Shown here piece by piece: positions 50,408-64,000 of a DNA stretch of 64,000 nucleotides (the stretch's first letter is position 1; every line of letters begins with the position of its first letter). The DNA lies in NCBI GenBank assembly GCA_943787795.1, contig CALSNU010000001.1:160001-224000 (forward strand), given 5' to 3'. The notes under the pieces are model-generated. The model was not told where the DNA came from. It worked only from the letters and a program-made list of their open reading frames with translations, and made no database searches. This stretch comes from an uncultured bacterium (GTDB lineage Bacteria > Planctomycetota > UBA1135 > GCA-002686595). The position numbers were made by a program, and so were the translations under genes.

Positions 50408-51142
50408 CAGAGTTTCAAGTTCGAGTGACACTCGCGGACCGATTGATTCTCTGACAGTAGCTCTCGTGATCGGCGCGGGCGAGCGGAAGGTTCCAGCTCG
50501 GCCCCGACCACGCGTGCTGCGTGAGGGACGGTTCGGACAAGAGTCGAATGCGCCGGAGGCGCGGGTGATGCCGTCCCCGTCGAAGACCAAAGGTCTCAGA
50601 GGTTCGGGCGGAATTAATGGGCCCGGGGGGAGGCGAACCTGCTCCCGAGGGCCCAGATCGTCCGCGACGGGTCGCCCCAGCGCAAGCAAGACCCGTTCAA
50701 TGCCGGACGGCCGCTTCGCAGCATGAAGATGCGTTGACCCCCTCTCCCAGGTCCCTGACGCCGGCTGGGCCCTGATGGAAGAGGGGCCTGAGAGGAGAGC
50801 GGGCCGGGGCCAGGGGCCCCTCGGCCGGTCCGAGGGTGCTCCCGAGGGGGATCGATCGCGATGCCCTTCATGCCACGGCGGTGGGTCCAGTCCGCGAGGC
50901 CTCTCTCCCGCTGCGCAGCGCTGGAGCGCGCGGGGCTCCCCGTCGAGCCCCCCCTCGAGCCCCTGCGTTGGCTCCCTCCTTGTCTCTGCATCCAGGCGGG
51001 CCAGGAGAGGGGCGGATGCCGCATGGGATGGTCTCAGATGATGGAAGTGGACGTGAAGAGGCGGGGCGCGCTCCCCGGGCAGGGAGGCCAACCTGCAGAC
51101 TGGGTCCACTGCCTCCTCCCGTTGCCGTTCAAGTCACAAGCC

Positions 51143-52753
51143 ATGCTCTCGCTCCTCCTCCTCTCGCTCGCGCAAGCTCCTGCGCCCTGCCTTCCCTCGG
51201 AGATCCTCCCGGCCTCCGGGACGGCCAGTCCCAGCTTCGGTGAGATCATGGCGGTGGACGGGGACCGGCTGATGGTCGCGGCGGACTCCGGCGGCGGGAG
51301 CCTCGACGTCATCAAGGTCTTCGAGCGCGACGCGGTTGGAGGAGGATGGTCGGAAGTTCAGGAGGTCGCCCTGACGCCCTCGCAGGGATCGCACGTGACG
51401 GACCTCGACCTCGATGGTGATCGGGCGGTTGTGGTGGCGGCTGACATGGGCTTGCTCGTCTACAAGAGCTGGGGCCTGGAGCGGGACCCTGCCAGCGGGC
51501 TCTGGGGATGGGGCCTGGAGATCGAAGGCTCCCAGATAGCGGGGCAGCTCAGGGCCTCGGTATTTGCAGACGACGTCGCTGTGGGGTCAGCTGTGTTGTC
51601 AGCGGGCCGGGTTCGCTGCTATCGCAGGGATCCGGCGGGCTGGCAGCTCTTCAAGACCATTCCGGTTGGCGGCCAGGTGAGGGAGATAGACCTGAGCCTG
51701 CGCTTCCTCGTGATCTCTACGGGGTCCACCACGGTGACGAACGACCTCTACGCCTACACCCGTATCCCGGGCCCGGACCTGCTGCCGCCCATCCTCGTGA
51801 ATTCGTCATCCAGAGGGCCCTTCGGCGTGGATGACGACCGGATCATCACGAGGTTTGGCGGCGTGGTCCGTCACTTCTCCGCCAACGCCGCCGGGGACGG
51901 CTGGTTCGCGGCCCAGACCATCTCCCCGCCGGGGGGCTACTCCTTCGCACCTCCGCCGGGAGCACCGCTGAGCCTTGATGCCGGTAGTGGGGTCTTCGTG
52001 CTGAACGGGACCCAGGGGGTGACGGGTCAGGCGGTCTTCACCTACCGCCGAAATCAGTTCGGGATCTACGAACTGGATTCGATCCTCCAGCCGACTACCC
52101 CGCCGGTTCCCCCCTTCGACGGTGACTCGCTGGGACGCAGCATCGCCGTGGGTCGGAACCACGTGATCCTCGGGAGCGTGGGCGCGTTGGGAGAGGGCCG
52201 CCTGGCGGCCCGCGCCCTGAGCTCGAACGACTGCGATCAGAACGGCCTCGGCGACTCCTGCGACCTGATCCTGGGGCAGGGCTTCGACGTGAACCAAAAC
52301 AACACGCTCGATGGGTGCGAGGAGACCGGGGTGCGCTATTGCAGCCCGGCGACGGCCAACTCCTCGGGGGAGGTGGCGCGCATCGGGATCTTCGGTCCGC
52401 CGACGACGGCGCTGTTCTCCATCAACTTCTACGCGGAGGGGCTGCCCGATGGGGGGCTCGGGGCCTTCATGGCGTCCCGCGGGAACCAGGTGGTGACGAA
52501 CCCGCTGTACACGGGGAACTTCTGCCTGGGCGGAGCCCCGACGTACCGGAACCTGGGCGGCCGGCAGTTCATCACCGAGACCGGCCGGGCGCGGGTGCTG
52601 CTGAACCGGCCGTTCGTCCCCGATGGCCTCGGCGGTCTCCTGCCGATCCTCCCCGGGGAGACCTGGTACTTCCAGTATTGGTTCTACGACCCCGGTGCCA
52701 CGCCGAGCACGGGGTTCTCCGACGCGCTGGGCGTGACGTTCACGCTGTTCTAG
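51143..52753 (+). CDS. Secreted FG-GAP-like propeller protein with the lineage-type C-terminal domain
   Basis: Signal peptide, FGEIMAVDGDRL and LGRSIAVG repeats, DCDQNGLGDSCD, YCSPATANSSG...PGETWYFQYWFYD...FSDALGVTF. Confidence 0.75.
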   Translation: MLSLLLLSLAQAPAPCLPSEILPASGTASPSFGEIMAVDGDRLMVAADSGGGSLDVIKVFERDAVGGGWSEVQEVALTPSQGSHVTDLDLDGDRAVVVAADMGLLVYKSWGLERDPASGLWGWGLEIEGSQIAGQLRASVFADDVAVGSAVLSAGRVRCYRRDPAGWQLFKTIPVGGQVREIDLSLRFLVISTGSTTVTNDLYAYTRIPGPDLLPPILVNSSSRGPFGVDDDRIITRFGGVVRHFSANAAGDGWFAAQTISPPGGYSFAPPPGAPLSLDAGSGVFVLNGTQGVTGQAVFTYRRNQFGIYELDSILQPTTPPVPPFDGDSLGRSIAVGRNHVILGSVGALGEGRLAARALSSNDCDQNGLGDSCDLILGQGFDVNQNNTLDGCEETGVRYCSPATANSSGEVARIGIFGPPTTALFSINFYAEGLPDGGLGAFMASRGNQVVTNPLYTGNFCLGGAPTYRNLGGRQFITETGRARVLLNRPFVPDGLGGLLPILPGETWYFQYWFYDPGATPSTGFSDALGVTFTLF

Positions 52754-52957: not shown

Positions 52958-54247
52958 ATGATCTCGACCCCCGAACACGACTTCGACGCCATCGTCATCG
53001 GCGGCGGCCCGGCGGGCTGCGCCGCGGCGACCGTGCTGGCCAAGAAGGGCCGCCGGGTGGCGGTTCTCGAGAAGCAGCCGCGCCGGCGCTACAGCGTCGG
53101 TGAGTCGCTGATCCCCTTCTGCTATGACGCGCTCGAGCGCATGGGGCTCGCGGGGGCCCTCGAGAAGCAGCGCTTCTCCTTCCCGAAGCACAGCGTCCAG
53201 TTCGCGAGCCAGGAGGGGAAGGTCAGCCGGTCCTTCTACTTCTTCCAGCACACCGACCACCCCCGCGCCAAGACCTGGCAGGTGGTGCGCTCGGAGTTCG
53301 ACAAGCTCCTCCGGGACAACGCCGAGGAGAGCGGCGTGCAGTTCTTCGAGCAGACCCGCGCCCGGGAGCTGATCTTCGGGGACCGCTGCGAGGTCCAGGG
53401 TGTGCGGGCCAACGACCCCGCGGGCTACGAGCTGACCTTCAAGGCGCCCGTGACCATCGACGCCACCGGCCGGGACACGTTCTCCCAGAGCCGGCTCGGC
53501 TGGCGTGTGCCGGACAAGAAGCTCCGGAAGATGGCCATCTGGACCTATTTCGAGGGCGCCACCCGGGACGAGGGCTACGACGAGGGCACCACGACCATCG
53601 CGTACCTGCCCAACAAGGGCTGGTTCTGGAACATCCCGCTGCCCGACGATCGGGTCTCGGTGGGGCTGGTCGCGGACAAGGACTACCTCTTCGGCGAGAC
53701 CAAGGACCTGGAGACGATCTTTAGCCGTGAGGTGGAGAAGCAGGACTGGCTCCGCGGACGGCTCGAGGACGCCCGCCGCACCGATGAGTTCCGCGTCACC
53801 TCCGATTTCTCGTACCGCTCGAAGCACTGCGCCAGCGACGGGCTCGTTCTGATCGGCGACGCCTTCTCCTTCCTCGACCCGGTGTTCTCCTCGGGCGTCT
53901 ACTTCGCCCTGACCAGCGGCGTGCTCGCCGCGGACGCGGTGGACGACGCGCTGACCGCTGGGGACACCTCGGCGGGCCGCTTCGCCGAGTATGGCGAGGC
54001 GTTCAAGAAGCAGATGGAGCCCATGCGGAAGCTGGTCTACGCCTTCTATGACGACCACTTCAGCTTCGGTAAGTTCCTGAAGGAGCACCCCGACCTGCGT
54101 CCCCAGGTGACCGACGTCCTGATCGGCGACCTGGAGAAGGACTACGACGACTTCTTCGAGGTCATGGGGAAGTTCGCGGACCTGCCCGAGCCCCTCCCGC
54201 ACGGGGAGCCCATCGGGGCGGACACAACGCACTCCGAACACGCCTAG
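52958..54247 (+). CDS. Flavin-dependent halogenase-like / geranylgeranyl reductase superfamily oxidoreductase
   Basis: GGGPAG, VGESLIP, F.K, V.RSEFD..L, GWFWNIPL (WxWxIP), GDAFSFLDPVFSSGV. Confidence 0.82.
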   Translation: MISTPEHDFDAIVIGGGPAGCAAATVLAKKGRRVAVLEKQPRRRYSVGESLIPFCYDALERMGLAGALEKQRFSFPKHSVQFASQEGKVSRSFYFFQHTDHPRAKTWQVVRSEFDKLLRDNAEESGVQFFEQTRARELIFGDRCEVQGVRANDPAGYELTFKAPVTIDATGRDTFSQSRLGWRVPDKKLRKMAIWTYFEGATRDEGYDEGTTTIAYLPNKGWFWNIPLPDDRVSVGLVADKDYLFGETKDLETIFSREVEKQDWLRGRLEDARRTDEFRVTSDFSYRSKHCASDGLVLIGDAFSFLDPVFSSGVYFALTSGVLAADAVDDALTAGDTSAGRFAEYGEAFKKQMEPMRKLVYAFYDDHFSFGKFLKEHPDLRPQVTDVLIGDLEKDYDDFFEVMGKFADLPEPLPHGEPIGADTTHSEHA

Positions 54248-54301
54248 TCCCGGGGCCGATGACCGCGTTCGGGCGGCGGACCCTAGACTCTTGGGCCGCC
54301 C

Positions 54302-54793
54302 ATGTGCCCCTCCGACGTCTTCCTCCCCTTCGAGCGCGCGCGCTTCAAGACGCGCCTCCCGCGCGGGCACTTCTACACCGCCGGACACATGTGGCTTCAC
54401 CAGGCCGAGCCGGACCTGTGGCACGTGGGGCTGACCCGCTTCGCCCTGCGGATGCTCGGTGAGCCGGTGGACCTGGATTTCGAGATGGCCCTGGAGACCG
54501 AGGTCGAGAAGGGCGACGTGGTGGGCTGGCTGGAGGGCTTCAAGGCGGTGACGGATCTCTACAGCCCCATCGACGGCAGGTTCGCCGGCGCGAACCCCGC
54601 CCTCGACGAGGGCCTCGACGCGGTCCACCGCTCCTCCTACCAGCGCGGCTGGCTCTTCGCCCTGCGGGGCAAGGTGGACGAGGACTGCGTGGACGCCGAG
54701 GGCTACGCGGCGGTCCTCGAGGCGGCCATCGACAAGGTGCTCGGGGAGCAGCCCGAGCTCGCCGAGGCCGAGGAGGGTGCGAGCCATGGCTGA
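54302..54793 (+). CDS. Glycine cleavage H-like (lipoyl carrier) protein
   Basis: HMWL, VGLTRFA...LGE.V, EGFKAVTDLYSP with the lipoyl Lys retained, N.AL, Y..GWLF. Confidence 0.85.
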   Translation: MCPSDVFLPFERARFKTRLPRGHFYTAGHMWLHQAEPDLWHVGLTRFALRMLGEPVDLDFEMALETEVEKGDVVGWLEGFKAVTDLYSPIDGRFAGANPALDEGLDAVHRSSYQRGWLFALRGKVDEDCVDAEGYAAVLEAAIDKVLGEQPELAEAEEGASHG

Positions 54794-55919
54794 GGACACC
54801 CGCGCCACCTACGTCATGATCGGCGGCTTCCTCGGGGCGGGGAAGACCACCGCCGTGGCCCGCATGGGGGCGGCGCTCACCGAGCGCGGCCTCAAGGTCG
54901 GGCTCATCACCAACGATCAGAGCTCCGGCCTCGTGGACACCTCCATCCTGCGCAGCCGCGGCTTCGCCGTGGAGGAGATCGCGGGGGGGTGCTTCTGCTG
55001 CCGCTTTGGGTCCCTGGCCGAGGCCGCCGAGCGGCTCGAGGCCAACGAGCGCCCCGACGTGTTTCTCGCGGAGCCGGTGGGGAGCTGCACGGACCTGGTG
55101 GCCACGGTGAGCTACCCGCTGCGCCGGATCTACGGCGACCGCTTCCGGGTCGCGCCGCTCTCGGTGCTCGTGGACCCCCAGCGCGCGCGGCGGGTCCTGG
55201 GGCTCGCGGCGGGGCGACGTTTCTCGGAGAAGGTGACCTACGTCTTCGAGAAGCAGCTCGAGGAGGCGGCCCTGATCGTCATCAACAAGGTGGACACCCT
55301 GGGGTCCGAGGAGCTGACGGAGCTTGAGGCGGCCCTGGCCGCGCGCTTCCCCGGTGCGAGGGTCCTCTCGGTCTCCGCGGAGCACGGGCGGGGGACGGAG
55401 GGATGGTTCGACCAGATCCTGGCCGAGGAGGCGGAGCCCCAGCCGACCATGGAGCTGGACTACACGACCTATGCCGAAGGCGAGGCCTTGCTGGGCTGGC
55501 TCAACCTCACGGCCCGGCTGTCTACTGATGGCGAGCCGGTGGACGCGAACCAGCTGCTCCTCGACCTCGCTGCGCGGATCCAGCGCGCCGCGGGCGAGCA
55601 AGACGCGGAGATCGCTCACCTCAAGGCGACCCTCGACGCGGGCGACGCGTCGGGGCGGCTGGCAGCCCTGTCGGTGACCTCCGGCGACGGAGAGGTGGAC
55701 CTGCGGGAGGCGCTGGTCGACGGCGTGCGCGCCGGCGAGCTCATCGTCAACCTCCGAGCGGAGGGCGATCCGGCGATCCTCAGGGCCATGGTGCTGGCGG
55801 CCCTCGAGACCGAAGCGGCCGCGCGTCCGGGCTGCACCCTTGAAGTGGAGCACGAGGAGCACTTCCGGCCCGCGCCGCCCGAGCCCACACACCGCGACGA
55901 GATCCGAGGGAGCGCCTGA
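54786..55919 (+). CDS. CobW/COG0523-like G3E GTPase metallochaperone
   Basis: GGFLGAGKTT, ITNDQ, EIAGGCFCC, EPVGSC, INKVD. Confidence 0.85.
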   Translation: MAEDTRATYVMIGGFLGAGKTTAVARMGAALTERGLKVGLITNDQSSGLVDTSILRSRGFAVEEIAGGCFCCRFGSLAEAAERLEANERPDVFLAEPVGSCTDLVATVSYPLRRIYGDRFRVAPLSVLVDPQRARRVLGLAAGRRFSEKVTYVFEKQLEEAALIVINKVDTLGSEELTELEAALAARFPGARVLSVSAEHGRGTEGWFDQILAEEAEPQPTMELDYTTYAEGEALLGWLNLTARLSTDGEPVDANQLLLDLAARIQRAAGEQDAEIAHLKATLDAGDASGRLAALSVTSGDGEVDLREALVDGVRAGELIVNLRAEGDPAILRAMVLAALETEAAARPGCTLEVEHEEHFRPAPPEPTHRDEIRGSA

Positions 55920-55922
55920 CCC

Positions 55923-56261
55923 ATGAGCCGCCGCATCGTCCACTGCCACTGCGTCTACTCGAAGGTGGTCCCCGCCGACGTGAAGGCCGCCGTCCTCGAG
56001 CGCCTCGCGGGCTCGGACGCGGACTTCGAGGCGGTCCCCGACCTGTGCGAGATGTCAGCGGGCAAGGACCCGGCGCTGGCGCGCTTCGCCGGGGACGGCG
56101 AGGTGGAGATCGTGGCCTGCTTCCCGCGCGCCGTTCGATGGCTCTTCCACTCTGCGGGTCACGATCTGGCTGCGGAGGCTAGCATCCACAACATGCGATC
56201 ATCGACGGCTGACGAGGTCTGCGGGGCCCTGGGCCTTCCGGACGGGGAGAGCGCCTCTTGA
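55923..56261 (+). CDS. Small Cys-rich protein (CxC...LC...AC.PR)
   Basis: HCHC, DLCE, IVACFPRAVRWLF; tightly coupled to both neighbours. Confidence 0.7.
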   Translation: MSRRIVHCHCVYSKVVPADVKAAVLERLAGSDADFEAVPDLCEMSAGKDPALARFAGDGEVEIVACFPRAVRWLFHSAGHDLAAEASIHNMRSSTADEVCGALGLPDGESAS

Positions 56262-57112
56262 AGCCGCGCGAGGCTGCCCGTCCGGGCCCGAGCGCGCCCT
56301 TCGGCGAGCTCCACGTCACCGTGGAGCCGGGGGGCTTCGACGGCGTGGACGCCGCCGGCCGTGGAGCGGTCCTCGCTGCGCTGCTGGAGGCGGGGCACCC
56401 CGTCTCCCGTAAGGCCGGCGCGGGCGAGGGAGCCCTCGCACGCCTGGGCGGCGACGTGGGCGTCTTGGACCGCGCACCCGAGCAGGTGGTCGAGGACGTG
56501 GCTGCGCGGCGTGAGGCCGCCGCGGCGCCGGCGCCGGGAGCGTGGACGCCGTGGTTCCCGGTCATCGACTACGACCGCTGCACGAACTGCATGCAGTGCC
56601 TCTCCTTCTGCCTGTTCGACGTGTACTCGGTGGACGGCGACGGCCGGATCACGGTCCAGAACCAGGAGAAGTGCAAGACCAGCTGCCCTGCCTGCAGCCG
56701 CGTCTGCCCCGAGGTCGCGATCCTCTTCCCCAAGTACAAGAAGGGACCCATCAACGGGGACGAGGTCAAGGCCGAGGACATCGCGTCGGAGTCCATGAAG
56801 GTGGACATCTCCTCGCTCCTGGGCGGCGACATCTACTCGGCCCTCAAGGAGCGCAGCGGCTCGGCCAAGCAGCGCTTCTCCACCGAGCGGGACGAGTCCA
56901 AGGCCCTCCTGGAGCGCAAGCGCTGCCTGAAGGAGCTCAAGGACAAGCTCGACATCCCCTCGGAGGTCCTCATGAGCCTGCCGAGCGCAGGGGACATCGA
57001 GGAGCGAGCGCGACGCGCCCGCGCCAAGCAGGAGGAGCGCATCGCGCGCTCCCGCTCGGCCCAGGACCAGAAGAAGACCGAAGGTCCGAGCACCCAGGAG
57101 TGGGACATTTGA
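56258..57112 (+). CDS. 2x[4Fe-4S] ferredoxin domain protein with helical C-terminal extension
   Basis: CTNCMQCLSFC and CKTSCPACSRVCP. Confidence 0.85.
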   Translation: MKPREAARPGPSAPFGELHVTVEPGGFDGVDAAGRGAVLAALLEAGHPVSRKAGAGEGALARLGGDVGVLDRAPEQVVEDVAARREAAAAPAPGAWTPWFPVIDYDRCTNCMQCLSFCLFDVYSVDGDGRITVQNQEKCKTSCPACSRVCPEVAILFPKYKKGPINGDEVKAEDIASESMKVDISSLLGGDIYSALKERSGSAKQRFSTERDESKALLERKRCLKELKDKLDIPSEVLMSLPSAGDIEERARRARAKQEERIARSRSAQDQKKTEGPSTQEWDI

Positions 57113-58305
57113 GCGCCGCCCTCGCCATGCGCGTCCTCCGCACGACCTCCCCGAAGGTCCAGTGGAAGTTCGCCTACAACTTCGGCTGGAAGGGCATGCG
57201 CAGCGTGCAGCGCTTCAAGAGCCGCCTCAAGGAGGGGAAGGTCTTCCCGCCCTTCCTCTACATCTCGATCATCAACTCCTGCAACCTGCGCTGCCGCGGG
57301 TGCTGGGTGGACGTCGCGGCGCCCCAGAAGAAGATCAGCTTCGAGGACTTCGACCGCATGGTCACCAACGCCAAGAAGCACGGGAACCGCTTCTTCGGCA
57401 TCCTCGGTGGGGAGCCATTCCTGCACCCTGACCTGATGCGCATGCTCGCGGCGCACCCGGACTGCTACTTCCAGATCTTCACCAACGGGCAGCCGATCAC
57501 CGACGAGGTGGCCGCCGAGCTCGCGCGCCTCGGCAACGCGACGCCGCTCATCAGCGTCGAGGGCGACACCGTCGAGAGCGACGCGCGCCGCGGGCGCACG
57601 GACGTCTACGACAAGACCCTCGCGGGCATCGAGGCGGCGCTGCGACACAAGCTCCTGGTGGGCGTGGCGTCCAGCGTGTGCGCCACCAACTACGACCAGC
57701 TCGTGCGCGAGGAGTGGGTGGACAAGCTCATCGATCTGGGCGTGCACTACTGCTGGTTCCACACCTACCGCGCCGTGGGGCCAGACGCCGCCCCCGAGCT
57801 GGCGCTGACCCCCGAGCAGATCCGCAGCACCCGCCAGTTCGCCGTGGACATGCGCAACCGCAAGGCCATCGGCTTCGTGGACGCCTACTGGGACGACAAG
57901 GGCCAGGCCCTGTGCCCCGCTGCCATCGGGATCAGCCACCACATCTCGCCCTACGGGGACGTGGAGCCCTGCCCGATCGTCCAGTACGCCACCGAGCGCA
58001 TCCAGGACAACGACGGCGACATCTACAAGACGCTCACCGAGTCCAAGATGCTCGAGGACTTCCGGCGCACCGCCGCGGAGACCACCCGAGGCTGCATCGT
58101 GCTCGAGGCCCCCGACAAGCTGGCCGAGGTGGGCCGGCGCCACGGCGCCCGCGACACCACCGCCCGGGGCGACGCCTTCGAAGAATATGACCGGATGGAG
58201 TCCCGGCCGAGCCAGCACGACCCGGGCAATGAGATCCCCGAGAAGCACTGGATGTATCGCTTCGCCAAGAAGCACTGGTTCTTCGGGTTCGGCGCCTACA
58301 CCTGA
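57109..58305 (+). CDS. Radical SAM enzyme with SPASM/Twitch-like C-terminus
   Basis: CNLRCRGC, GGEPFLH, FTNG, LCPAA...ISPYGDVEPCP...GC; TTG start overlaps the ferredoxin stop. Confidence 0.9.
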   Translation: MSAALAMRVLRTTSPKVQWKFAYNFGWKGMRSVQRFKSRLKEGKVFPPFLYISIINSCNLRCRGCWVDVAAPQKKISFEDFDRMVTNAKKHGNRFFGILGGEPFLHPDLMRMLAAHPDCYFQIFTNGQPITDEVAAELARLGNATPLISVEGDTVESDARRGRTDVYDKTLAGIEAALRHKLLVGVASSVCATNYDQLVREEWVDKLIDLGVHYCWFHTYRAVGPDAAPELALTPEQIRSTRQFAVDMRNRKAIGFVDAYWDDKGQALCPAAIGISHHISPYGDVEPCPIVQYATERIQDNDGDIYKTLTESKMLEDFRRTAAETTRGCIVLEAPDKLAEVGRRHGARDTTARGDAFEEYDRMESRPSQHDPGNEIPEKHWMYRFAKKHWFFGFGAYT

Positions 58306-58419
58306 GCCTGCCGGCGGGCGGCGGCCCGTGTACAGGTTGTTCAGCCCCGGCGGCGTTTCAGCGCACCCGGAGCATCGAGCCCCTAGAATGCGACGAAGCC
58401 TTCCCCGGACGCCACGACG

Positions 58420-60273
58420 ATGAACCCGCCCCCCGATCCCGCCACCGCCTCCCCCGACGCGCCGACCGAGGCCGCTCCGGAGGCGACCCCCGCGATCCGG
58501 AGCACCCTCTCCGGCGGCGAGACCCGGGTGCAGCTACCCCGCCGTTTGCCCATCGTCCGTGAGCGCACGACCCAGTCCAACATCCCGAACGAGCGCGCCA
58601 CCCGCGACCGTTTGCGGAGCCTCGCCGCGGCGCTGGTCGCCGAGCGAGCGGTCGTCGCACCCGCCTCGATCCTGCAGCTGCGGGAGCTGGCCGTGGAGGT
58701 CATCCGGCGCGCCGATGTGGACGACGTCTTCATCGACTACACCGCGGTCCTCCTGAACAACGAGGTCTGGCGGGACGAGCTGGCCCAGGTGCCCTACGAG
58801 CGGCGCCTGCTGCTCCTCCCCAAGTGCCTGCGGGTCGAGGAACACTGCCCCGCCCCCTTCGACGAGTTCGGGATGCTGTGCAAGGAGTGCGGCCTGTGCT
58901 CCATCGAGGACTTCACGCGCGAGGCCGAGGAGCTCGGCTACGCGGTGCTCATCGCAGAGGGCTCGGCCATCGTCACGGCCATGGTGGAGACCGGCAAGAT
59001 CGACGCCATCGTGGGGGTCTCTTGCCTCAACGTGCTGGAGAAGTGCTTCCCGCACATGGAGCGGGTGGCGATCCCGGGCATGTCGATCCCGCTGCTCCAG
59101 GACGACTGCATCGACACGAACGTGGACGTGGACCAGGTCCGCGACCTCATTCACCTCACCGCCGAGGACCGCACCTACCGCCTCGACCTCGAGGGGCTCA
59201 AGGGCGACGTCCGCGCCTGGTTCAAGCGCGACGCGCTGGACGAGGTCATGGGCCCCGCCGCCGGGGTGGACCCCGCCACGGACGACCTGGCACGGGACTG
59301 GCTCGCGCGCGACGGCAAGCGCTGGCGACCCTATCTCGCGACCGCGATCTGGATGGCCCTGGAGAGCGAGGGCCGCGCCGAGGCGCCGGCCTTCACCGCG
59401 GACGTGCGCAAGCTCGCGGTGGCCATCGAATGCTTCCACAAGGCGTCGCTGATCCACGACGACATCGAGGACGGGGACGACGTGCGCTACGGCGCGCCCA
59501 CGCTGCACGCCGAGCACGGCGTCGCGGTGGCCATCAACATCGGGGACCTGCTCCTCGGTGAGGGCTACCGCCTGCTGGGCGAGCTCGAGGTCGTGGGTGA
59601 GACCCGCGCCCAGCTCCTGTCCGTCGCGGCCCAGGGCCACGCGACGCTCTCGCGCGGCCAGGGCGCCGAGCTCAACTGGGCACGGGCGCCGCGGCCCCTC
59701 AGCTCCCTGGAGGTCCTCGGGATCTTCCGGGAGAAGACGGCGCCGGCCTTCGAGGTCGCCCTGCGCCAGGGCGCGCTCCTCGCGGGCGCCGCGCCGGAGG
59801 TGCTCGAGGTGCTCGGGCCTTACAGCGAGGCCCTCGGCATCGCCTACCAGATCCACGATGACCTGGACGACTTCACCGGCGAGGGCGACTCGGACGACCT
59901 GGCCGACCTGCGCCCCTCGCTGATCATGGCCATCGCCCACAAGCGGGCGGCCGGCGGCGATGCCGAGGCCATGCTGGACGCGATCTGGCGCAAGGAGCGC
60001 CCCGTGGGCTCCCCCGGCTCCGACGAGCGGCTGGCCCTGGAGGCGCGCCTTGGGGAGTGGGGCGTCGTCCAGAAGGCCCGCGACCTCGCGGACGCCTACG
60101 AGGTGGCGGCGGTGGAGTCGCTGACACCGCTCCAGCACCCCAGCGTCAAGGGGCTCCTGCGCCGGGTCGTGGGCAAGATCTTCGGGGAGGGTGACCTCAT
60201 CGAGGGCTACTGCTCCGAGTTCGAGGCGCTGAACCGGTCTCGCCAGGAAGAGGCGCCGAAGACGACCGCTTGA
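58420..60273 (+). CDS. DUF116-like Cys-rich domain fused to a trans-polyprenyl diphosphate synthase
   Basis: LLLPKCLR...C......CKECGLC...GVSC; then GKRWRP, FARM HDDIED...RYG, GQ.AEL, KT, SARM QIHDDLDD. Confidence 0.88.
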   Translation: MNPPPDPATASPDAPTEAAPEATPAIRSTLSGGETRVQLPRRLPIVRERTTQSNIPNERATRDRLRSLAAALVAERAVVAPASILQLRELAVEVIRRADVDDVFIDYTAVLLNNEVWRDELAQVPYERRLLLLPKCLRVEEHCPAPFDEFGMLCKECGLCSIEDFTREAEELGYAVLIAEGSAIVTAMVETGKIDAIVGVSCLNVLEKCFPHMERVAIPGMSIPLLQDDCIDTNVDVDQVRDLIHLTAEDRTYRLDLEGLKGDVRAWFKRDALDEVMGPAAGVDPATDDLARDWLARDGKRWRPYLATAIWMALESEGRAEAPAFTADVRKLAVAIECFHKASLIHDDIEDGDDVRYGAPTLHAEHGVAVAINIGDLLLGEGYRLLGELEVVGETRAQLLSVAAQGHATLSRGQGAELNWARAPRPLSSLEVLGIFREKTAPAFEVALRQGALLAGAAPEVLEVLGPYSEALGIAYQIHDDLDDFTGEGDSDDLADLRPSLIMAIAHKRAAGGDAEAMLDAIWRKERPVGSPGSDERLALEARLGEWGVVQKARDLADAYEVAAVESLTPLQHPSVKGLLRRVVGKIFGEGDLIEGYCSEFEALNRSRQEEAPKTTA

Positions 60274-61148
60274 GCCTCCGCCTCGAGATGCTGCAGGTGG
60301 CCCGGCTCGCGCCGGGTGTGCTTGGTGGAGCCACGCCAAAGGTGGCAGAGTTCGTGCGCTCGCAGCTCACCGCCGAGGGCGGGGGCATGGATCGCGCCGG
60401 GAAGCCGGACCTCTACTACACGGCGTTCCTGCTCGATGCGCTGGTCGCGCTCTCGGAGGAGCTGCCCGCCGACCAGGTGCGCCCCTACCTCCAGACGTTC
60501 GGTGACGGGGAGGACCTTGACCTGGTGCACCGCGCGTGCCTGGTGCGTTGTTGGGCCGCCCTGGGAGAGGGCTGGCCGAGTGAGACCTTTGTCAGCTCGA
60601 TCACCGAGCACCTCGCGCGCTGCCGGAGCGCAGACGGCTCCTTCGGCATGGACCCAGGCCGCGCGCGCGGCACGCTCTACGACGCGTTCCTCGCGCTCGG
60701 CGTCTACCAGGACCTGGGTGTCCCGATGCCCGCGCCGGTGGTGCTCGGCGCGGCCATGGTGGAGCTCCGAACGCCGGATGGCGGCTTCTCCAACGAGAGC
60801 GAGCTGAGGTGGGGGATGGGTCCCTCCACCGCCGCGGCGGTCGCGGTCCTCTCTCAGCTCGAGCTCCCGGTGCCCGACGACGTCGCCCCCTGGCTCCTCT
60901 CGCAGATCCATCCCAAGGGCGGCTTCAAGGCGATTCCCGACGCGCCCATGCCGGACCTGCTCTCCACGGCGACGATCCTCCACGCCCTGGGGATCCTCGG
61001 CGCGGACATCGGGGGCGCGAAGGAGCTGTGCCTCGACTACCTCGACACCCTCTGGAACGGCCAGAGCTTCTACGGCCACTGGGCCGAGGAGGAGCTGGAC
61101 GTGGAGTACACCTTCTACGCGCTGCTCGCCCTCGGGCACCTGTCCTGA
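60270..61148 (+). CDS. Prenyltransferase/squalene oxidase (PFTB) repeat protein
   Basis: Repeats EGG..DRAGKPDLYYT, DGSF, DGGF, KGGF....PDLLSTAT, DVEYTFYALLALG; coupled to the upstream gene (TTGA). Confidence 0.82.
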   Translation: MSLRLEMLQVARLAPGVLGGATPKVAEFVRSQLTAEGGGMDRAGKPDLYYTAFLLDALVALSEELPADQVRPYLQTFGDGEDLDLVHRACLVRCWAALGEGWPSETFVSSITEHLARCRSADGSFGMDPGRARGTLYDAFLALGVYQDLGVPMPAPVVLGAAMVELRTPDGGFSNESELRWGMGPSTAAAVAVLSQLELPVPDDVAPWLLSQIHPKGGFKAIPDAPMPDLLSTATILHALGILGADIGGAKELCLDYLDTLWNGQSFYGHWAEEELDVEYTFYALLALGHLS

Positions 61149-61282
61149 ACCCACGAGGGGCGCCAGCTGGGCGGGCGGCGCGCTGGCCCTCAAGGCCCGC
61201 GGCCAAGGAGCGGGAGGCGCCGCCAGGGGCCAGCAGGGGTGGTGTCCTTCTGGTTTCAGCGACCGGCCCTTAGGGTCGAGAC

Positions 61283-63691
61283 ATGAAGCTCCTCGCCTTG
61301 GCCCCGTCGATTGCCCTCTCTCTCGCGGCGATCATCGTCGCGGCCCCGGCTGCCGCTCAGGGCGCCGACCTCTGCGTCTTCGCCCAGCCGATCACGGCCA
61401 CGGGGGCTTTCCCCGTGGACACCTCCCTCGCCGCGACCGACGGCCCCGCGAACGGCTGCGGTGAGAACGGCCAGATCCACAACGACGTGTGGTTCCGGTG
61501 GACGAGCACCGTGAGCGGGACGGTGCAGATGGACACCTGCGCCGCGGCGACCTTCGACACGACCGTGGCGGTCTACCCCGACGAGAGCTGCGCGACGGCG
61601 GCGCCGATCGTGTGCAACGACGACCAGTGCGCGCTCCGCTCGAGGGTGGCGTTCACCGCGGTGGCGGGAGTGGATTACCTCGTCCGGGTCGGGGGCTGGA
61701 ACGACGTGGCGCGCGGGACGGCGACGCTCACCATCAGCTCGGTGACGGGGGTCTCGAACGACACCTGCGCGAACCCCGCGCCCATCACGGGCTTCGGCGT
61801 CTTCCCGATGGACACCACCCAGGCCATGACGGAGGGCGTGGCGGACGGCTGCGGCTCGGGCGGCCAGATCTACCGGGACGTGTGGTACCTGTGGACCGCG
61901 ACCGTGGACGGGTCCACCGAGGTCAACACCTGCCAGGCGAGCTTCGACACGACGATCGCCGTCTATGACGGCGCGGCGTGCCCCACGGCGGCGCCCATCG
62001 CCTGCAACGACGACGCCTGCAGTATCCAGACGCGCGTGACCTTCCCGGCCATCGCAGGCAACACCTACCTGCTCCGAATGGGGGGCTTCAACGAGTCGGC
62101 GGGCGGCGTCTTCGACGCGACGATCAGCGCGGGGAGCGGGGTCAACTGCTCCTCACCGCCAGCGGGTCCGGACGTGATCATCGGCGACCTGCCGGCCATC
62201 CAGAGCTACGGCGGCGCGGCCGAGATGAGCGCCTTCGCCCTCGCCACCACCGCCTGCAACGTGGGGGACGCCACCATGAACTGGAACGGGAGCAACCGCT
62301 TCCACCCGGTCATCGGCCAGAACCTCTACCGCATCGAGGACGGCGCGATCCGGCAGCTCGGGATGTCCTGGCTCAAGCACGGCTTCGCCTCGGCCACGGG
62401 GAGCCTGTGCTGCACCTGCATCAACCCCGGCTCGAACCAGATCATGGGTGTCGGCTGCTCGGACCCCTATGGCGCCAGCATCAACGGCGCCCAGAGCGGG
62501 CTCGGGCCGCGCTCGGAGGTGAACCCCTGGACCGGGCTGTTCGCCTACCCCTTCGGGACCCAGGGCCAGACGGGTGACGTGATCTACAAGCGCCTGCAGG
62601 TGCCCACCCAGGACGTGGACCCGGCGCTTCACCCGGCGGCGCGGTACGTCGTCGAGGGTCAGTACGTGACCCCGGACGACGCCCAGGCCGGGAACCAGAA
62701 CAACAACTGTTCGTGGGCGGACGCCCAGCCCAGCGGGCCGGTCGCGGGGGGCCTGGGGCTCGCGATCTCGGGGGCCACGAGCGTGGGGGAGCCGGCGATC
62801 TTCGCCTGGCGAGCGGACGACCCGGAGGTGCAGATCTCGACCGTCGCGGCGGCGGGGGACGGGGTGATCCACGTGGGCTCCCGCGCCCATGACAACGGGG
62901 ACGGGACCTGGCGCTACGAGTACGCCGTGCACAACGAGACCTCGGCGCGCGCCGCCCGGAGCCTGCGGGTCCCGGTGGCGGCGGGGAGCACGGTCACGGG
63001 CGCGGCGTTCCACGACGTGGACTATCACTCTGGCGAGCCCTACGACGGGACCGACTGGGCGTTCACTGTCGCGGCGGGCGCCATGGAGTGGGCCACGCCA
63101 GGGCACGCCGTGAACCCGGACGGCAACGCCCTGCGCTGGGGGACGCTGTACGGCTTCACCGTCACGGCGAGCGCGCCGCCGGTGGCGGGCGCGGTGGACC
63201 TGGAGCTGTTCGTGCCGGGGCTCGAGAACCTGCTCACCGCCGCGGCCATCGTCCCCGGGGTGCCGGTGTTGGGGGAGCGCTACTGCTCGCCCGCGATCGT
63301 CAACTCCAGCGGGGCGCCCGCCGTACTCCGAGCCCTCGGGAGCGCCGTGGTCGCCGACGATGACCTGACGCTCGAGGCGAGCTCCATGCCCCTCCACACC
63401 TCGGGCTACATGCTCGCGTCCCTGGACGAGGGCTTCGCCGCCCAGCCGGGGGGGAGCCAGGGCAACCTCTGCCTCGGCGGCGCCATCGCGCGCTTCCGCT
63501 CCCAGGTGATGAGCTCGGGCGCCGAGGGTCGCTTCTCGATCCCCGTGGACCTCGCGGCGATCCCGATCACGCCGCCCACCGCGGTCCTCCCCGGGGAGAC
63601 CTGGCGGTTCCAGTGCTGGTTCCGCGACCAGCTGGTCTTCGGCATCACCTCGTCGAACTTCACGGACGCCGTGCGGGTCACCTTCGAATAG
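61283..63691 (+). CDS. Large secreted Cys-rich protein: two N-terminal repeats, central domain, lineage-type C-terminal domain
   Basis: Signal peptide; two DVW..WT.TV.G....TC...FDT..AVY...CNDD.C repeats; C-terminal YCSPAIVNSSG...NLCLGG...PGETWRFQCWFRD...NFTDAVRVTF. Confidence 0.82.
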   Translation: MKLLALAPSIALSLAAIIVAAPAAAQGADLCVFAQPITATGAFPVDTSLAATDGPANGCGENGQIHNDVWFRWTSTVSGTVQMDTCAAATFDTTVAVYPDESCATAAPIVCNDDQCALRSRVAFTAVAGVDYLVRVGGWNDVARGTATLTISSVTGVSNDTCANPAPITGFGVFPMDTTQAMTEGVADGCGSGGQIYRDVWYLWTATVDGSTEVNTCQASFDTTIAVYDGAACPTAAPIACNDDACSIQTRVTFPAIAGNTYLLRMGGFNESAGGVFDATISAGSGVNCSSPPAGPDVIIGDLPAIQSYGGAAEMSAFALATTACNVGDATMNWNGSNRFHPVIGQNLYRIEDGAIRQLGMSWLKHGFASATGSLCCTCINPGSNQIMGVGCSDPYGASINGAQSGLGPRSEVNPWTGLFAYPFGTQGQTGDVIYKRLQVPTQDVDPALHPAARYVVEGQYVTPDDAQAGNQNNNCSWADAQPSGPVAGGLGLAISGATSVGEPAIFAWRADDPEVQISTVAAAGDGVIHVGSRAHDNGDGTWRYEYAVHNETSARAARSLRVPVAAGSTVTGAAFHDVDYHSGEPYDGTDWAFTVAAGAMEWATPGHAVNPDGNALRWGTLYGFTVTASAPPVAGAVDLELFVPGLENLLTAAAIVPGVPVLGERYCSPAIVNSSGAPAVLRALGSAVVADDDLTLEASSMPLHTSGYMLASLDEGFAAQPGGSQGNLCLGGAIARFRSQVMSSGAEGRFSIPVDLAAIPITPPTAVLPGETWRFQCWFRDQLVFGITSSNFTDAVRVTFE

Positions 63692-63759
63692 GGGGCGTCC
63701 GGCCGAGGGGGGGCGGCGGCGCGCCGTCGAGCCCGCCGCCGCCCGTATACTCCTGCTCC

Positions 63760-64000
63760 ATGGGGGCACCCCTCGATCCCGACGGCCTCCTCTGGCTCGA
63801 CGACGCGCTCGGCCGGGCGCGGGCGTCGCTGCTCGATCGCCGCGGAGACGCCGGCCATTGGAGGGGGGAGCTCTCCTCCAGCGCGCTCTCCACCTCCACG
63901 GCGGTGGCGGCCCTGGCGGGCGCGGCCGGCGCCCTCCCCGTCGGGTCTCCCGAGCGCGCCGACCTCCAGGGGCTCGCCGAGCGCGGACGGGCATGGCTCG
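63760..64000 (+). CDS. Squalene-hopene cyclase-like / prenyltransferase protein, 5' part (runs off window end)
   Basis: ATG 63760 reads MGAPLDPDGLLWLDDALGRARASLLDRRGDAGHWRGELSSSALSTSTAVAAL...RGRAWL, an SHC-type N-terminus; absent from the ORF track. Confidence 0.75.
   Translation, partial: MGAPLDPDGLLWLDDALGRARASLLDRRGDAGHWRGELSSSALSTSTAVAALAGAAGALPVGSPERADLQGLAERGRAWL

Follow-up and report, generated by a model that had tools for sequence, protein, structure and literature searches.

Two interleaved gene modules, one built around a DUF116-prenyl synthase and a divergent class II cyclase, at a locus of an uncultured planctomycete

Gene content of the locus

The stretch of DNA analysed here, referred to as the window, comprises 64,000 nucleotides of contig CALSNU010000001.1 from an uncultured planctomycete (assembly GCA_943787795.1; G000:C1:160001-224000 in our designation), whose genome is 85% complete. 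At its end lie ten genes on the plus strand, which an earlier note, made from the sequence alone, had read as a single terpenoid-tailoring pathway. The window instead holds parts of two interleaved conserved gene modules, designated A and B, and the cluster that they form reaches well beyond its end. Module A consists of nine genes, encoding a GcvH-like protein, a CobW protein, a four-cysteine protein, a ferredoxin, a radical SAM enzyme, a DUF116-prenyl synthase, a prenyltransferase-like barrel, a cyclase resembling squalene-hopene cyclase (SHC) and, downstream of the window, a cysteine desulfurase. Module B comprises an EhpF-like ligase, aldehyde and alcohol dehydrogenases, a HemN-like protein, a glycosyltransferase, transporters and a halogenase-like protein. 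The cluster of the earlier note is module A together with one module B gene and an unrelated insertion.

In other respects the earlier description of the genes was accurate. All ten open reading frames lie at the coordinates given in Table 1 with their frames intact, the four stop/start overlaps (54793/54786, 56261/56258, 57112/57109 and 60273/60270) are all found in the sequence, and the family assignments stand. The SHC-like start at 63760 likewise opens a reading frame that extends past the window, giving a 628-residue protein that ends at G000:C1:225646 and contains the sequence PDADDT. A promoter and terminator scan gave no signal exceeding chance.

Table 1. Genes of the ten-gene run, with positions in the window
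Feature	Position	Strand	Evidence
Halogenase-like flavoprotein, 429 aa, module B	52958..54247	+	Trp_halogenase 4e-25; PDB 3E1T E 1e-49
GcvH-like lipoyl-carrier paralogue, 163 aa, module A helper	54302..54793	+	PF01597 (GCV_H) 3e-16
CobW/G3E metallochaperone-type GTPase, 377 aa, module A helper	54786..55919	+	PF02492 (cobW) 2e-25
Four-invariant-Cys protein, predicted Fe-S, 112 aa, module A	55923..56261	+	Conserved cysteines
2x[4Fe-4S] ferredoxin-domain protein, conserved C-terminal extension, 284 aa, module A	56258..57112	+	Fer4 families
Radical SAM enzyme, extra conserved C-terminal cysteines, 398 aa, module A	57109..58305	+	PF04055 (Radical_SAM) 1e-18
DUF116 fused to trans-isoprenyl diphosphate synthase, 617 aa, module A core	58420..60273	+	PF01976 (DUF116) 1e-37; PF00348 (polyprenyl_synt) 5e-40
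Single alpha-alpha barrel, protein-prenyltransferase-beta-like, 292 aa, module A core	60270..61148	+	Prenyltrans 7e-10; model
Secreted protein, galactose-binding-like domains, 802 aa, insertion	61283..63691	+	PF23759 only
Divergent class II cyclase (SHC-like), first 80 codons of 628 aa, module A core	63760..64000 (-> C1:225646)	+	PF13243, PF13249

Conservation and active sites of module A

A contig scan with the DUF116-synthase confirmed at least 561 relatives among 600 stretches, and the best 80 loci were kept. Within these, tblastn located the radical SAM gene at 56 loci, the ferredoxin gene at 51, the barrel gene at 50, the four-cysteine and cyclase genes at 47 each, the GcvH-like gene at 41, the CobW gene at 40 and the desulfurase gene at 30, counts that are lower bounds given the many short contigs. 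Their order mostly matches that of the window, and the loci are labelled Planctomycetota, Verrucomicrobiota, Acidobacteriota, Hydrogenedentota and Gemmatimonadales. Of 20 loci with more distant synthases (35-47% identity), 17 have a cyclase in the 20 kb retrieved. Module A is a real, widely conserved set whose order is kept across several phyla, and the core genes do co-occur in other genomes, as the proposal of a cluster had implied. That the ten genes form one unit, conversely, is not supported, since the halogenase-like gene is present at six of the 80 loci and tracks module B, while the 802-residue gene is present at two, both in close kin (97-99% identical).

In addition, 180 Planctomycetota genomes, sampled evenly and each at least 92% complete, were surveyed. 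The synthase occurs in 43 and the cyclase in 42, and 41 of the 44 genomes with either carry both. At a threshold of E <1e-100, by which seven genomes with only weaker matches were dropped, the radical SAM orthologue was found in 35 genomes, 34 of which carry the synthase (34 of the 43 synthase-positive genomes), often at an unlinked position. GcvH-like matches (E up to 1e-17, a threshold that misses divergent cluster-side copies) came from 15 genomes, all synthase-positive. Among 40 relatives of the host the synthase is patchy, being present in nine of 17 genomes of the genus and one of seven from the rest of the family, with a single weak partial match among the 16 order-level relatives.

The synthase domain has the fold of a trans-isoprenyl diphosphate synthase (Z 32.9, root-mean-square deviation (rmsd) 2.9, 325 residues aligned) and possesses both aspartate-rich motifs: D347, D348 and D351 are invariant in 105 sequences, and D480, D481 and D484, together with eight cysteines, in 68. 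Seven invariant cysteines lie in DUF116, and the eighth is near the C-terminus. Synthases with small residues before the first aspartate motif make chains of C25 or more; A342 and S343, which occupy this place and are invariant in the 105 sequences, would point to such a product, and position 411 is Ser, Cys or Ala. A fold search with the whole protein returned match lists that were both filled by the synthase domain, and an Atlas search with DUF116 returned other DUF116 clusters only. DUF116 (arCOG02078) has been described as a cysteine-rich CxxCxxC family with a predicted flavodoxin-like fold, metal binding and a role in electron transfer, and its fusion to a polyprenyl synthetase has been noted as Psta_0175 of the cultured Pirellula staleyi (Makarova et al. 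2015, PMC5898192, section 3.6). That section provides no pathway context for the fusion, whereas here the fusion is the anchor of a nine-gene set. Furthermore, a cluster that combines genes for DUF116, SHC, HpnH and a polyprenyl synthase is listed in a figure legend of a preprint (10.1101/2025.11.21.689855).

The DxDD motif of class II cyclases, on which the earlier note had reserved judgement, is present in the downstream part of the cyclase as D362-x-D364-D365; it is invariant in 68 of 68 sequences and aligns with the DVDD of SHC. The protein matches 1GSZ with E 1e-11 and keeps the aligned SHC histidine, but its TIGR01507 score, at 57.1 bits against a cut-off of 431.1, falls below the SHC threshold. 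By its sequence, then, the cyclase is not an SHC but a divergent class II cyclase, and no other protein of the host genome matches PF13243 better. The last 164 bp of its gene are repeated about 550 bp downstream with 94% identity, with a small hydrophobic open reading frame between the two copies (G000:C1:225646-226364; L001:3647-4365), which looks like an insertion that has duplicated the 3' end of the gene.

Both the cyclase and its neighbour have been anticipated in print. Santana-Molina et al. (2020) described an SHC-like clade from Planctomycetes and Verrucomicrobia with intact catalytic residues, a polyprenyl synthase gene nearby and a precursor that is likely not squalene (PMC7306690). 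Module A matches this clade by description, sharing a divergent cyclase with its catalytic residues, the adjacent synthase and hosts among the Planctomycetota and Verrucomicrobiota. However, that paper names the cyclase and synthase only: its supplement text has no entry for DUF116, radical SAM or GcvH, although its Fig. S10 may show more, and the passages covered draw no link between the clade and an aromatic-acid module. The same paper recounts the Bacillus sporulene pathway (HepS/HepT, YtpB and SqhC), in which an enzyme of SHC fold cyclises a head-to-tail polyprenoid instead of squalene. Module A differs in having no YtpB-like gene among its conserved neighbours, and further in its radical SAM enzyme, its Fe-S proteins and its prenyltransferase-like barrel. 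A 2026 preprint further states, in the part covered, that Pirellulales have no true SHC (10.1101/2025.07.29.667474). In the literature covered, which leaves most subscription journals and all bioRxiv supplements aside, no description of the full module A cluster was found. The label 'uncharacterised' given by the earlier note is thus apt for the product, but not for the genes as a whole, because earlier papers separately record the cyclase clade, with a polyprenyl synthase gene beside it, and the DUF116 fusion; module A is partly anticipated, and the new elements are the division of the locus into two modules and the non-obligatory association measured between A and B.

The third core protein was modelled as a single barrel with high confidence (pLDDT 96). 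Its nearest structural neighbour is 1N4P_B (Z 26.2, rmsd 2.7, 263 residues aligned), and protein prenyltransferase beta subunits in general score Z 23-26, compared with Z 17-19.5 for cyclases. The zinc-binding cysteine of the D-x-C motif is not kept, PDLLS being aligned with PDVCYS; D229 and L231 are invariant, and no cysteine occurs in columns conserved at 90% or more. As modelled, the protein is most like a bacterial relative of the eukaryotic protein prenyltransferase beta subunits, with a role that is predicted only. Its barrel fold is also that of MstE (PDB 6SBB; Z 17.2, rmsd 3.5, 261 residues aligned), which acts in merosterol formation and offers a precedent for a cyclised prenyl chain carried on an aromatic acid. 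Unlike MstE, the barrel of module A lies nearer to the protein prenyltransferase beta subunits and is accompanied by a separate two-domain cyclase.

The radical SAM enzyme reached the cut-off of no NCBIfam family among the 25 of 43 matches listed. Its family is large, 7609 of 8000 candidates matching at E up to 1e-20, a figure that takes in more distant relatives. At seven loci the same slot is occupied by a non-orthologous B12-type radical SAM enzyme, a protein of 500-520 residues with a weak TIGR04013 match, encoded between the ferredoxin and synthase genes (L052:8349-9920, L080, L098, L099, L102, L119 and L157). Furthermore, eight of the 12 surveyed genomes with module A alone are without the 398-residue type, and longer relatives with 31-34% identity (E 1e-42 to 1e-50) were seen in G077, G062, G135, G106, G093, G150, G057 and G045. 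The enzyme of the window may resemble the Mss family. Membership of Mss has been set at 30% identity or more with E <=1e-50 to a confirmed Mss (PMC13159169), and the literature yielded no motif usable as a test of Mss/Gms identity.

Among the remaining proteins of module A, those of CobW and GcvH-like type are putative helpers. The CobW protein, at 40 of the 80 loci, has a conserved GCFCC motif, and both cysteine motifs of the ferredoxin-domain protein are conserved. In the 112-residue protein, C8, C10, C42 and C66 are invariant in 25 sequences, and at some loci it is fused to the ferredoxin; it gave no Pfam, NCBIfam or meaningful PDB match, and its Atlas matches are unnamed clusters only. Its cysteine pattern is, we assume, reminiscent of the N-terminal Fe-S domain of HdrA, but an HdrA identity is unsupported, no HdrA chain being among its five PDB profile matches (E up to 10).

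The GcvH-like protein keeps the lipoyl lysine K81 in at least 95% of 57 aligned sequences and scores 59.5 bits against the TIGR00527 cut-off of 115.85, so that the equivalog score is not reached. As first observed, GcvP and GcvT are absent from the cluster, which does not serve glycine cleavage: the genome has a canonical gcvT-gcvH-ligase cluster on contig C4 and gcvP at C1:427 kb. A second glycine cleavage system was considered and rejected, the GcvH-like protein being below the cut-off and distinct from the C4 copy beside gcvT. A lipoate ligase gene adjoins the GcvH-like gene or module A at five loci. Several neighbourhoods with synthase and cyclase have no carrier gene in the stretch fetched (e.g. 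L020, L021, L073, L075, L098 and L102), and an exchangeable helper therefore fits better than an obligatory scaffold; the earlier idea that a product is assembled on this carrier is accordingly doubtful. Genes for NuoF-like, 2Fe-2S/flavoprotein and polyferredoxin membrane proteins lie beside module A at L073:2214-7961, L075, L098, L102, L115 and L118. In the stretch fetched, five of six neighbourhoods with a NuoF-like protein or Fe-S flavoprotein are without the GcvH-like gene (L073, L075, L098, L102 and L118/L119), L115/L116 being the exception. From these carrier-less neighbourhoods we infer that the GcvH-like protein has an exchangeable role in electron supply.

The 802-residue gene between barrel and cyclase is an unrelated insertion that belongs to neither module, its relatives being scattered elsewhere and in another position at L122. 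Secreted proteins with a similar-looking C-terminal domain both flank and interrupt the cluster (window 50861-52753 and 61283-63691; L122:5281-8500), and in the relative G020 such genes instead separate the radical SAM gene from the synthase gene.

Module B and its association with module A

The single module B gene of the window encodes a flavin-dependent halogenase-like protein. Its best PDB matches are halogenases, of the CndH/PltA type, and the GxGxxG, lysine and WxWxIP motifs, for which we assume the usual roles, the lysine presumably being catalytic, are all present; K77, W222-x-W224-x-IP and FLDPVFSSG are conserved in 16 aligned sequences. The QhpG, LodB and geranylgeranyl reductase families also match, below cut-off, and the protein is a putative halogenase. 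Orthologues were counted at E up to 1e-90 (six weaker matches dropped) and those of EhpF at E <1e-75 (13 weaker matches dropped). On this basis the halogenase-like gene occurs in 39 of the 180 genomes, all 39 within the 42 that are EhpF-positive, and 29 of them carry the synthase.

The remainder of module B lies beyond the window, where the desulfurase gene (C1:229885) is followed by two secreted beta-propeller proteins, DUF3311 and a sodium symporter, the EhpF-like ligase (C1:237161), a protein of aldehyde dehydrogenase fold, an iron alcohol dehydrogenase and more propellers. Genes for a radical SAM enzyme of HemN type and for a GT4 glycosyltransferase complete the run, which extends to C1:253107, and a thioesterase, an EamA protein and an ABC exporter are encoded at C1:291-296 kb. 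What we take to be a DegT-like aminotransferase gene and a 658-residue capsule-synthesis-like gene interrupt module B on the opposite strand (G000:C1:245638-249008). Loci centred on EhpF show a similar order: propellers, DUF3311, symporter, EhpF-like gene, aldehyde dehydrogenase, alcohol dehydrogenase, propeller, HemN-like gene, a gene weakly labelled as chorismate-lyase-like, halogenase-like gene, glycosyltransferase, thioesterase and exporter.

The EhpF-like ligase matches PDB 3L2K (E 9e-40), and the partner of aldehyde dehydrogenase fold, in which C296 is conserved in 27 sequences, adjoins its gene at 16 of 18 EhpF loci. A two-protein carboxylic acid reductase, GriC/GriD, is reported to adenylate and then reduce an aromatic acid (PMC10179220). 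Module B resembles EhpF/EhpG and GriC/GriD in having an adenylating enzyme of EhpF type followed directly by an aldehyde-dehydrogenase-fold partner, which is likened to EhpG and GriD by fold and position; it differs in having no phenazine or grixazone genes nearby. L159 and L160, both labelled Verrucomicrobiota, have an EhpF-like gene without this partner in the fetched 20 kb. In family f29, 11 of 14 genomes carry an EhpF-like gene that is only distantly related (about 35% identity; e.g. L142:9370), and the one f29 locus fetched has no further module B gene.

At seven loci the halogenase-like gene of module B is next to the chorismate-lyase-like gene. The small product of the latter has no Pfam match and no single-sequence PDB match, and a profile matches 2NWI (E 9e-7), which we take to have a chorismate-lyase-like fold, so that the label is a weak one. 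A lyase-like/halogenase-like pair of this kind, baaA-baaB, has been proposed, without genetics, for 3,5-dibromo-p-anisic acid in a planctomycete (10.1101/723874, in the part covered); the likeness is one of adjacent gene types. The product of module B is likely to be a halogenated aromatic alcohol. The literature covered contained no description of module B. Alichondrichlorin, a hydroxybenzoate ester of a fatty chain whose pathway is not given in the part of the source covered, has not been linked to the modules (PMC11848864).

Among the 180 genomes, 31 carry both modules, 12 module A alone, 11 module B alone and 126 neither; B is thus present in 31 of the 43 A-positive genomes compared with 11 of the 137 that are A-negative. 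Where module A includes the radical SAM enzyme of 398-residue type, 30 of 34 genomes carry B. Removal of family f13, all 17 genomes of which have both modules, leaves 14 of 26 against 11 of 137. In a separate selection of 45 A-positive genomes from mixed phyla, an EhpF orthologue (E <1e-75) was found in 36. Furthermore, genes of the two modules are physically mixed in G000, G020, G086, G103, G304, L025, L058, L064 and L089, in differing arrangements: at L089 the B genes lie inside module A, and at L157 the genes for EhpF and aldehyde dehydrogenase abut the cyclase. The association is therefore a measured but non-obligatory one, each module also occurring alone.

A proposed pathway and its alternatives

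The scheme put forward here builds on gene content, gene order, catalytic motifs, folds and co-distribution, from which we infer every chemical step. The DUF116-synthase would make a prenyl diphosphate of C20 or longer, the prenyltransferase-like barrel may transfer or release the chain, and the DxDD cyclase would protonate its far double bond and fold the rings. The radical SAM enzyme might then carry out a single C-H activation on the lipid. Maturation of the metal centres would fall to the cysteine desulfurase and CobW, and the ferredoxin, the four-Cys protein, DUF116 and the lipoylated GcvH-like protein are putative electron carriers. In module B, the EhpF-like enzyme would adenylate an acid of 4-hydroxybenzoate type, which would be reduced to the aldehyde and then to the alcohol, and the module would further methylate, halogenate, glycosylate and export its product. 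Since most genomes with A also carry B, they may make one hybrid lipid; a host with one module alone would either stop at the corresponding half or rely on a different partner. That the product of module A is a cyclised head-to-tail polyprenoid is probable, the two leading readings taken together. The fuller reading that we favour, in which this polyprenoid is built without squalene and, in most hosts, attached to an aromatic head derived from module B, as a meroterpenoid-type lipid, is held tentatively, at somewhat short of an even chance.

Several observations weigh against this joint reading. The top structural matches of the synthase are geranylgeranyl diphosphate synthases, which speaks against a chain of C25 or more; the barrel is without its zinc-binding cysteine, which makes its chemistry a guess; and the chorismate-lyase-like gene gave no match in the host genome with one query, a difference from the baaA-baaB pair. 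The association statistics overstate the link, because the genomes are related, not independent, and no species tree was used. Moreover, the two modules might be independent, A making a cyclised polyprenoid alcohol or hydrocarbon and B a decorated aromatic, with the same hosts carrying and transferring both. Stand-alone modules in near-complete genomes speak for such independence: the single-contig genome G210 has A, with no match for EhpF, aldehyde dehydrogenase or glycosyltransferase (one of these scans was without a positive control), and B occurs without DUF116 in G133, also a single contig and also without the cyclase, as well as in G200, G047, G122 and G141. In 151 Acidobacteriota genomes B is far commoner than A (EhpF in 39, the synthase in four, three of them with EhpF), and 36 of the 147 without A carry B; where distances were measured, the anchors of A and B are 0.5-4.7 Mb apart in nine of 15 genomes. 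On the other hand, independence does not readily explain the repeated physical mixing in different phyla and arrangements (L089, L157), nor an association that survives the removal of f13, and although quite conceivable it is on the whole doubtful.

Three further explanations concern module A itself. The radical SAM enzyme could couple two prenyl chains into a squalene-like dimer for the cyclase to fold into hopanoid- or tetrahymanol-like rings, since enzymes of this class are known from elsewhere to join lipid tails (PMC13459092, section 2.2), the enzyme tracks the synthase even when unlinked, and no squalene synthase was found in the host genome. However, the B12-type enzyme in the same slot at seven loci argues against one coupling chemistry, and the barrel is left unexplained, which makes such a dimer improbable. 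A prenylated and cyclised sulfur cofactor built on the GcvH-like carrier, with sulfur from the desulfurase and a thioether made by the barrel, would accord with the kept carrier lysine, the lipoate ligase genes beside the cluster, the desulfurase at 30 of the 80 loci and a barrel whose fold is nearest to thiol-prenylating enzymes. Yet the carrier is missing from otherwise complete neighbourhoods, the zinc-thiolate cysteine is not kept in the barrel, and the many Fe-S proteins already account for a desulfurase; we consider this cofactor similarly unlikely. Lastly, an ordinary hopanoid locus with a divergent SHC, to which the DxDD motif, the histidine and the 1GSZ match might point, is largely refuted and has very little probability left, given the TIGR01507 score and the gene complement of the host. 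No hpnCDE genes lie just downstream, so that standard hopanoid synthesis is not matched, as the earlier note had expected; no HpnH passes in the genome (best 41 bits against a cut-off of 225), and no hpnC/D-type gene of the squalene route was found, HpnE not having been searched for. Because 15% of the genome is unassembled, hopanoid genes could be hidden there. The sole PF00494 match is a crtB gene within a rhodopsin/retinal cluster (G000:C1:879820-885991), which, on our own reading of its sequences, presumably consists of blh-, crtY-, crtB-, crtI- and crtE-like genes with an opsin gene.

For the favoured polyprenoid reading, the significance lies chiefly in a question that Santana-Molina et al. 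(2020) left open, namely the product of the planctomycete SHC-like enzymes, the answer to which could assign fossil lipids to taxa (PMC7306690, in the part covered). Module A, present in about a quarter of the sampled Planctomycetota genomes (44 of 181), is a gene set with which this product can be tested, and its link to module B offers a concrete candidate for the head group. A bolder extension, which we regard as a long shot, is that the two modules make widespread and overlooked bacterial membrane meroterpenoids with tricyclic (cheilanthane-type) or larger rings, radical-modified and capped by a halogenated, glycosylated hydroxybenzyl group. If true, such lipids would offer a biological origin for the tricyclic terpane biomarkers, the pathway to which has been listed as uncharacterised (10.64898/2026.01.29.702649). 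With the pathway, DUF116 would gain its first function, as would a bacterial relative of the prenyltransferase beta subunits and a radical SAM family of thousands.

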